A DNA stretch of 64,000 bases from an uncultured Gammaproteobacteria bacterium. Its GTDB lineage: Bacteria; Pseudomonadota; Gammaproteobacteria; JAGOUU01. Each line of letters opens with the position of its first letter. Position 1 is the stretch's first letter. The stretch lies in assembly GCA_964387745.1 (NCBI GenBank), contig CAYLXL010000001.1, forward strand, positions 1,136-65,135, written 5' to 3'. The notes under the pieces are model-generated. The model had not been told where the DNA came from. It made no database searches and was given only the letters and a program-made list of their open reading frames with translations. Below are positions 35,830 to 35,932 of this stretch, one piece after another. The position numbers and the translations under genes were made by a program.

Positions 35830-35932
35830 TCTTATCCCAAAATTGCCTTGTATTTTAGGATGTTTTATCCCAAAATTGCCTTGTGTTTTGGGCTGCTTTA
35901 CCCCAAATATACCTTGTATTTTGGGATAAAAT
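35830..35932. repeat. three tandem about 34-bp units, each an 8-bp-arm inverted repeat (cccaaaat N8 attttRgg), upstream of the first ATPase gene
   Basis: Seen directly: ttatcccaaaattgccttgtattttagga / ttatcccaaaattgccttgtgttttgggc / taccccaaatataccttgtattttgggat. Confidence 0.6.

Follow-up and report, generated by a model that had tools for sequence, protein, structure and literature searches.

The contig CAYLXL010000001.1 (assembly GCA_964387745.1) of an uncultured Gammaproteobacteria bacterium was analysed over 64,000 nucleotides (positions 1,136 to 65,135, forward strand); this whole stretch is referred to below as the window. By its iPGM, its nearest named relatives are uncultured Gammaproteobacteria with 64% identity. 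The subject of the analysis is a short tandem array of imperfect inverted repeats that lies between the terminator of a deaD-like gene and a gene for an AAA_14/DUF4143 ATPase, and which is probably a protein-binding regulatory DNA array, either a tandem operator or an assembly array. The features of the locus, in coordinates counted from the first nucleotide of the window, are the following.

33761..35746, + strand: upstream neighbour, a DEAD-box RNA helicase gene (deaD-like), given for context only (Pfam DEAD, Helicase_C and DeaD_dimer).
35765..35805, + strand: intrinsic terminator of deaD, formed by a hairpin of 14 pairs (35765-35797) and a T run after it (terminator scan; inverted repeat I5).
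35815..35927, + strand: whole tandem array (Tandem Repeats Finder, TRF, score 120; direct-repeat family D1, spacing 33, 33).
35815..35826, + strand: unit 0, the decayed half-unit TTGTATGTTAGG, comprising the end of the core and the right arm only; it reads TTGTATTTTGGG (intact) in the sister-strain contigs L001 and L002.
35836..35859, + strand: unit 1, CCCAAAAT TGCCTTGT ATTTTAGG (pattern match; identical in L001, L002 and L173).
35869..35892, + strand: unit 2, CCCAAAAT TGCCTTGT GTTTTGGG (pattern match).
35902..35925, + strand: unit 3, the promoter-proximal unit, CCCAAATA TACCTTGT ATTTTGGG (pattern match; overlaps both candidate -35 hexamers).
35921..35949, + strand: predicted sigma-70-type promoter TTGGGA-17-TAAAAT (promoter scan, 9/12 matches; -35 inside unit 3).
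35979..37349, + strand: array-linked gene for a 456-aa AAA_14 + DUF4143 ATPase with a PD-(D/E)XK-type C-terminal region (Pfam; PADLOC).

TRF described the array as 3.4 copies of a 33 bp period, and the start-to-start unit spacings found in the repeat search were likewise 33 and 33; a preceding sequence-only reading of the window had given the unit as about 34 bp. The same reading had proposed three tandem inverted-repeat sites, and this was borne out: with up to three mismatches allowed, the palindrome pattern CCCAAAAT-N8-ATTTTGGG matched the window solely at the positions of units 1, 2 and 3 (one, one and two mismatches, respectively). Shuffled windows contained a mean of 0.68 such matches and two of 100 shuffles reached three. 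The asymmetric core together with the right arm, CCTTGTATTTTGGGAT, was matched five times against 0.83 expected, a count reached in none of 100 shuffles, and the three good matches were the three array units. Each unit is an imperfect dyad (CCCAAAA/TTTTGGG) flanking the asymmetric centre CCTTG, which is its best-conserved part. The units are 24 nt long and are separated by 9-nt linkers that are alike (ATGTTTTAT and CTGCTTTAC); its arms alternate, which also allows a reading in which inverted arms pair from one unit to the next (ATTTTAGGAT/ATCCCAAAAT). It starts about 10 nt past the T run of the deaD terminator and ends 52 nt before the start codon at 35979 (-164 to -52 relative to that codon). 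The earlier placement of the array between this terminator and the ATPase gene was correct, and the distance of 40-140 bp stated with it becomes 54-143 bp for the three full sites when counted from the start codon used by homologues, with the decayed unit 0 further upstream. No T run follows any of the units, as the sequence-only reading had said in denying that they are terminators, and the terminator scan of the window found no terminator between the array and the ATPase gene. A CRISPR array was ruled out on the 24-nt units with mutually similar 9-nt linkers and the absence of unique spacers of about 30 nt.

Judged from the loci compared, the array is linked to the gene and not to the locus. 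The closest homologues of the ATPase (59-64% identity; L003, P0018/L165, L166, L167 and L169) have two or three like boxes at exact 33-bp spacing directly upstream, and the same holds for 2-3 copies of the same box before homologues of 52-64% identity in unrelated contexts. The homologue in L003 (64% identity) follows lipA and a tRNA-His gene and has two boxes upstream; that in P0018 lies next to rmuC on a 132,887-bp contig, L165 being a shorter contig with the same protein; that in L166 lies next to relB/mazEF, that in L167 before a glycosyl hydrolase gene and that in L169 on a further unrelated contig. No neighbouring gene was conserved across contexts in the loci compared. Two complete plasmid records from cultured organisms also carry boxes: three units were found on a Criblamydia sequanensis plasmid, and two boxes 66 bp apart on a Bacteroides plasmid. 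The box consensus of the window clade is CCYAAAAyAACCTTGTGTTTTRGG, in which the conserved asymmetric centre ACCTTG has the same polarity relative to the gene in every unit.

A degenerate pattern covering all three units, CCCAAAWWTRCCTTGTRTTTTRGG, was searched by exact matching. It had 0 matches in 185,579 representative genomes (one per species), and the source lineage is therefore not represented there; it had 0 matches in the IMG/VR viral contigs. Among 183 fetched loci it occurred solely in L001, L002 and L173, all of which are copies of the same deaD-ATPase junction. The core alone gave 10 matches in viral contigs, all single, isolated and non-tandem, with no ATPase nearby and in near the chance number.

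Comparison of the window with the sister-strain contigs L001 and L002 revealed 0 differences over 35832-36053, a span that takes in units 1-3, the promoter region and the first part of the gene, against about 13 substitutions in the preceding 90 nt (35746-35835), where unit 0 differs at four positions. Divergence falls off abruptly at the left edge of unit 1, as would be expected if the units are under purifying selection or, alternatively, if the edge of a cassette was set there by recombination; on either reading units 1-3 go with the ATPase gene.

The spacing recurs across the family. A further 160 homologue loci (34-48% identity, many phyla) were taken from representative genomes and metagenomes, and in the 155 that were usable for TRF the 250 nt upstream of the start were scanned. 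Arrays were found in 55 of these, 42 of them with a period of 32-34 and 38 with a period of exactly 33; the remaining 963 kb of the fetched loci contained only five arrays of period 32-34, at least two of which precede further distant paralogues (26-28% identity) of the same family. An alignment-free self-offset test was applied to 152 upstream regions, in which the best 14-nt self-match with at least 13 identities was recorded over offsets 12-70 and ties were shared. The fractional best-offset counts were 43.5 at 33, 14.8 at 66 and 3.3 at 32, with all others about 6, compared with 1.0 at 33 among 760 random segments and with 1.5, 3 and 1 at offsets 33, 66 and 32 among 373 intergenic control segments. 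Expressed as loci, a near-perfect self-match at 32, 33 or 66 bp was present in about 40% of the 152 homologue loci versus about 1.5% of the intergenic controls. A crude regular expression for the core yielded only about fivefold enrichment, and the periodicity statistics were used instead.

The median copy number of the arrays was 2.6 (range 2.0-3.8; one paralogue has up to about 10), with median start and end positions of -126 and -41 counted from the start codon, values that the window array fits. The TRF arrays yielded at least 11 clusters of unit sequence, to which several proteobacterial types are added: AATTATTTCTTTGGATTTTTTC occurs in many Bacteroidales, GCCTTGACTTTTGGATAAA at some Prevotella-type loci and AAAACAACCCCTTGT, AAAACATGGTTGTGTTTTAT and ACCCCTTATTTTG at proteobacterial-type loci. 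Many unit sequences with one period point to protein geometry and not to one selfish repeat. The best-conserved part of the unit is the GC-containing core (CCTTG/CCCCTT/GCACC), not the A/T tracts, and many clades keep the core without the right arm. All arrays share one orientation relative to the gene; those of L005 and L016 align forwards with the L085-type box. A Bacteroidales metagenome-assembled genome (L047) carries 9-10 GGAAAACGCACC units with a 33-bp period before a 26%-identical AAA_14/DUF4143 paralogue, and TTTCTTTGGAT units upstream of its main homologue 1.3 kb further on. The box type thus follows the paralogue and not the host, which argues against a shared host factor. A full-text literature search retrieved no description of upstream repeats of DUF4143, PF13635, COG1373, PDC-S01 or AAA_14 genes, the AAA_14 results being mostly noise, and a conserved 33-bp-period box array on PDC-S01-family promoters appears to be undescribed.

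The arrays are interlocked with promoter motifs. Besides the scanned promoter, analogy with L166, L011 and L003 suggested an alternative in the window, recognized by eye: TTGTAT (35914-35919)-17-TAGGAT (35937-42), whose -35 likewise falls within unit 3. The motif TAnnTTTG, which we take to be the -7 promoter motif of Bacteroidota (Bacteroides promoter consensus), was found 0-16 nt past the array end in 33 of 43 arrays versus 31 of 840 control segments, and inside the arrays three times; it lies 28-49 nt before the start codon (75 nt in one case). In at least 12 sigma-70-type lineages the spacer of 16-18 nt that separates a strong TTGACA from the -10 hexamer is filled by a box, as in TTGACA-TAAATAACCCCTTTTTA-TATCAT of L086, and in some of them a second box, inverted, follows just downstream. 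Since the promoter motifs stand after or around the last unit, the arrays would be promoter DNA and not a transcribed leader. The array thus appears to share two properties with operators: by prediction it overlaps or abuts the core promoter, and it is conserved with its gene across relatives and contexts. The sequence-only reading had suggested a triple operator for a dimeric DNA-binding protein. The operator part of this is supported, as the boxes follow the gene and abut predicted promoters; the dimeric part is not established, given the imperfect dyad, the weak covariation of the arms and the asymmetric, polar centre. As a separate observation in L047, six GGAAAACGCACC units also precede an unrelated 152-aa open reading frame (ORF) without a Pfam match (the two GGAAAACGCACC arrays lie at 946-1252 and 2717-2900), and a TAnnTTTG motif follows each GGAAAACGCACC array; the occurrence of these units before two genes hints at small regulons.

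The start of the ATPase gene was taken as 35979, the codon used by homologues, and the 456-aa form is the one on record; the ORF finder had begun at an alternative ATG at 35970. Exact look-ups of the 459-aa form and of DeaD gave no match. The product matched the PADLOC system PDC-S01 (profile PDLC04788) with E = 6e-157 over residues 1-453 and has the AAA_14 + DUF4143 architecture, and the gene, as distinct from the array, is a member of PDC-S01. DUF4143 is classed as a family of the PD-(D/E)XK nuclease type (PMC3424549). PDC-S01 reportedly ranks fourth in frequency among the defence candidates of prokaryotes, its role in defence being that of a candidate only (PMC12988326). A Thermus member of the family is reported to be induced 6.6-fold with plasmid DNA present (PMC4406477), and the family is therefore regulated at least there. 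An AlphaFold2 model of the window ATPase had a pTM (predicted template-modelling score) of 0.81, and its best structural matches were 2qen and 2fna, both archaeal AAA+ ATPases, and 2qby, an Orc1/Cdc6 structure bound to origin DNA. A sequence search of the PDB with the ATPase returned midasin only, over approximately residues 19-69, which include the Walker A motif.

On the favoured reading, the array would be double-stranded promoter DNA of the ATPase gene that presents three to four equivalent putative protein-binding boxes 33 bp apart. This distance corresponds to about 3.1 helical turns, and neighbouring protomers would then occupy almost one side of the helix, winding slightly as a spiral, as might be expected for a filament-forming AAA+ protein. 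With the last box overlapping the -35 hexamer, a cooperative box binder would control transcription of the ATPase gene, most simply, we infer, by repression. The putative binder would be the gene's own product, an AAA+ protein of the Orc1/Cdc6 and archaeal-ATPase class fused to a PD-(D/E)XK nuclease-like domain. The ATPase is the likeliest candidate because it is the sole protein always encoded beside the arrays, no neighbour being conserved; this identification, which is a subset of the operator-array reading, is plausible and is put forward tentatively. The array would then function as an autoregulatory operator and an oligomer-assembly site for the candidate defence protein PDC-S01. An extension that we regard as rather unlikely is that the arrays are cognate 'self' DNA on which PDC-S01 assembles ATP-dependently into an ORC/DnaA-like spiral that keeps the gene, and perhaps the nuclease, off, until invading DNA or a phage factor disturbs or titrates the assembly and thereby derepresses and licenses the system. 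If this extension were true, a very common candidate defence family would possess a DNA-encoded control module with clade-specific codes that are readable from genomes alone.

Several observations weigh against the operator-array reading or its details. Only about 40% of the homologue loci have a clear 33-bp period; elsewhere there is one inverted pair or no obvious pattern. In the window itself, TRF and inspection of the upstream regions detected no 33-bp array at paralogues 2 and 3 of the ATPase; the comparison of the three upstream regions had been proposed with the sequence-only reading, and both paralogues proved to be without the array. The window promoter prediction is not significant when taken alone (one found versus 1.5 expected), and the same applies to the TTGTAT-17-TAGGAT alternative. 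The core plus the left arm of the next unit resembles a sigma-70 promoter (TTGTAT-17-CAAAAT), a likeness that the operator model does not need. A boundary left by recombination, instead of purifying selection, could account for the drop in strain divergence at unit 1. Finally, the DNA-binding winged helix proposed for the ATPase comes from the structural neighbours of the model, whose residues 253-335 are of low confidence.

The sequence-only reading had offered three consecutive RNA stem-loops in a 5' leader as an alternative to the operator. In its general form this explanation holds that the repeats are transcribed, as a 5' leader or a small RNA, and act as hairpins, being a ToxI-like neutralizer or translational or processing signals; we consider it improbable. 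Tandem repeats of about 33 nt directly before a candidate defence gene do recall the ToxI/ToxN layout, and the uniform orientation of the arrays relative to the gene would suit a transcript. Compared with shuffles, the array region also has a stronger predicted fold on either strand (z = -4.0 and z = -3.3), as any alternating inverted repeat would, but the minimum-free-energy fold is one long nested hairpin and not three local stem-loops. Among 18 window-clade units, the arms pair in 84.7% of cells versus 80.1% in shuffles (one of 500 as high) and the arm covariation score is 0.239 versus 0.181 in shuffles (14 of 500); this slight covariation is what a dyad DNA site would give as well. The non-Watson-Crick arm cells comprise 15 T.G versus 10 C.A, so neither strand is favoured, and the lack of a right arm in many clades also speaks against this explanation. 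No Rfam family matched the region at the gathering threshold, and E values up to 10 gave only far sub-threshold chance matches. In most lineages the promoter motifs stand past the last unit or around it, which would leave the distal units outside the mRNA, and in the window the gap that separates the array from the deaD terminator is too short for a promoter. The stem-loop alternative is not supported. A ToxIN-like type III toxin-antitoxin system was rejected as a candidate because the array starts 10 nt past the deaD terminator T run, no terminator precedes the gene and promoter motifs stand after or within the homologue arrays. An endoribonuclease of the ToxN/AbiQ type was ruled out because the protein is AAA_14 + DUF4143 and its nearest structures are AAA+ ATPases; the PD-(D/E)XK-like domain likewise sets it apart from a ToxN-type RNase.

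The arrays might instead be promoter architecture without a dedicated binder, that is, reiterated promoters or phased A/T tracts (UP-like or curved DNA) that boost or silence transcription via RNA polymerase or nucleoid proteins. This account gains from the -35/-10-like elements that the core and the next left arm form at the ideal spacing of 17 bp, in L165 and L167 (TTGTGT-17-TAAAAT) as well as in the window, and from the A4 and T4 tracts repeated every 33 bp. It is nevertheless hard to reconcile with the 33-bp period of Bacteroidota, where the promoter geometry is another and TAnnTTTG stands inside arrays three times but after them 33 times, with conservation that is strongest in the GC-containing core and not in the A/T tracts, and with the distinct cores kept by paralogues on one contig, which a generic effect of polymerase or nucleoid proteins would not require. 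We judge it unlikely.

A mobile-unit origin, in which the boxes would be recombinase or transposase sites or origin-like iterons that serve to move or replicate an ATPase cassette and not transcriptional operators, is very unlikely. The gene and array do occur together in unrelated contexts and on plasmids, the divergence between strains does drop abruptly at unit 1, and the ATPase does resemble initiator (Orc1/Cdc6) and TnsC-like AAA+ proteins and has a nuclease-like domain. However, no matching boxes were found downstream of the ATPase gene or elsewhere in the 64-kb window in either orientation, no recombinase or transposase is consistently adjacent, and the arrays always stand upstream of the start codon at a short, fixed distance, interlocked with promoter motifs. 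In L003 (9767-9843) the 64%-identical homologue and its two boxes lie 157 nt downstream of the tRNA-His gene, a typical island insertion point.

A generic dispersed repeat, such as a repetitive extragenic palindromic (REP) sequence, a bacterial interspersed mosaic element (BIME) or a miniature element, or a neutral local duplication is largely refuted and scarcely credible: the array is intergenic, follows a terminator and has imperfect palindromes in alternating, BIME-like arms, and the search of the source genome covered 64 kb, but there is no second locus in the window, the searches of representative genomes, viral contigs and fetched loci led only to copies of the one junction, and, across phyla, related boxes of conserved period stand specifically before homologous ATPase genes. 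The motif search that accompanied the sequence-only reading has thus been run, and the view that the array is not a REP-like dispersed repeat stands as far as it is testable, within the 64 kb of the source genome. Membership of the REP/BIME class fails on two counts, as the array occupies one locus in the window with no copies at unrelated intergenic loci and the 33-bp boxes are tied to AAA_14/DUF4143 genes.

Three PDC-S01-type ATPase genes lie within 9 kb of the window (35979-37349, 37429-38592 and 43383-44618). They fall in two PADLOC sub-models (PDLC04788 and PDLC04790) and flank a 351-aa ORF and an ankyrin-repeat gene. A 17-nt inverted repeat (ACTTATAAATTTGTCCA/TGGACAAATTAATATGT, 44601-44652, 88% complementary) spans the start of paralogue 3 (43383-44618, - strand) and may be that gene's own operator in the inverted-pair style of other lineages; nothing comparable was found at paralogue 2 (37429-38592, - strand). 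The ankyrin-repeat gene (ORF 39887-43306, + strand) contains a 138-bp tandem repeat at 41067-42532 (TRF, 10.6 copies, 88% matches) that encodes 46-aa repeats in a 1139-aa protein (Ank_2/Ank_3), which has the appearance of the eukaryote-like effectors that bacteria associated with amoebae typically carry. AAA-ATPase and DUF4143 are also among the domains drawn in a domain-architecture figure of a preprint on a Legionellales symbiont. At the 3' end of deaD, a 45-bp repeat (35300-35497, 4.4 copies) encodes 15-aa units in the C-terminal tail of DeaD, which is the part most divergent from the sister strain and includes a 9-nt indel. Upstream of deaD, a 6S RNA gene (33310-33510, - strand; RF00013, with 48 bits slightly over the gathering score) immediately precedes a 5-formyltetrahydrofolate cyclo-ligase ORF (32660-33376), with a small overlap, in the classical ssrS-ygfA arrangement.

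A gene-linked array with a fixed 33-bp period offers a concrete handle on the candidate defence family PDC-S01. The operator-array reading predicts that PDC-S01 ATPases, or a partner, would be sequence-specific DNA binders that oligomerize in a three-turn register, that PDC-S01 genes would be tightly self-controlled and that there would be one recognition box per clade, so that specificity could be studied by comparing natural protein/box pairs. For annotation, the signature would be 2-4 units (up to about 10 in one paralogue) with period 33, the array ending at a median distance of about 40 nt ahead of the start codon. Array carriers that are cultivable include Bacteroides, Prevotella, Capnocytophaga (L062, L077) and the host of the Criblamydia plasmid (L170).

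In terms of function, partition arrays, iterons with Rep autoregulation and initiator boxes come nearest to the array; it belongs to none of them and differs from them in period, protein family and genomic setting. REP and BIME sequences share with it short imperfect palindromes in alternating orientation in intergenic positions after a terminator, but REPs occur in tens to hundreds of copies without a tie to a gene family, whereas the array motif is single-locus in the data searched and tied to one family. Type III toxin-antitoxin systems (ToxI/ToxN, CptIN and TenpIN) have 2-5.5 units of 34-40 nt before the gene, with an upstream promoter and a terminator, and the transcript is cut by a ToxN-type RNase. 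The short tandem array directly upstream of a defence-associated gene is common to both. In the present case promoter motifs are found past the array or inside it, no terminator follows it and the encoded protein is of an unrelated type.

In iteron plasmids (Rep/TrfA/RepA), Rep monomers bind the iterons and Rep dimers bind an inverted repeat at the promoter. The array resembles them in having direct repeats beside the gene of the presumed binder, and related lineages here use an inverted pair overlapping the promoter. Iterons differ in their period of about 22 bp and in belonging to an origin with an AT-rich region and DnaA boxes, whereas nothing indicates replication here; an iteron-type origin was rejected on the 33-bp period and the adjacent protein, which is not of the Rep family. 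In the partition loci parC of R1 (with ParR) and sopC of F (43-bp repeats, each with a short inverted repeat, with SopB), equally spaced units stand at the promoter of an NTPase operon, are bound cooperatively, with formation of a higher-order complex, and mediate autoregulation. The likeness lies in tandem, evenly spaced units, possibly with an internal dyad, at the promoter of an adjacent NTPase gene. Partition arrays employ a separate small adaptor (ParR/ParB) and a ParM- or ParA-type NTPase, in contrast to the single gene, the other ATPase class, the 33-bp period and the mostly chromosomal setting without partition context found here. Archaeal origin recognition boxes (ORB elements, with Orc1/Cdc6) are polar boxes with a dyad that are bound by an adjacently encoded protein with AAA+ and winged-helix domains, and DnaA autoregulates via boxes in its own promoter. 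At the sequence level the window ATPase does not belong to those protein families, it has the extra PD-(D/E)XK-like domain and the setting is a bacterial chromosome without a sign of an origin, but the nearest structures of the ATPase, 2qby, 2qen and 2fna, include the Orc1/Cdc6 protein of the ORB systems.

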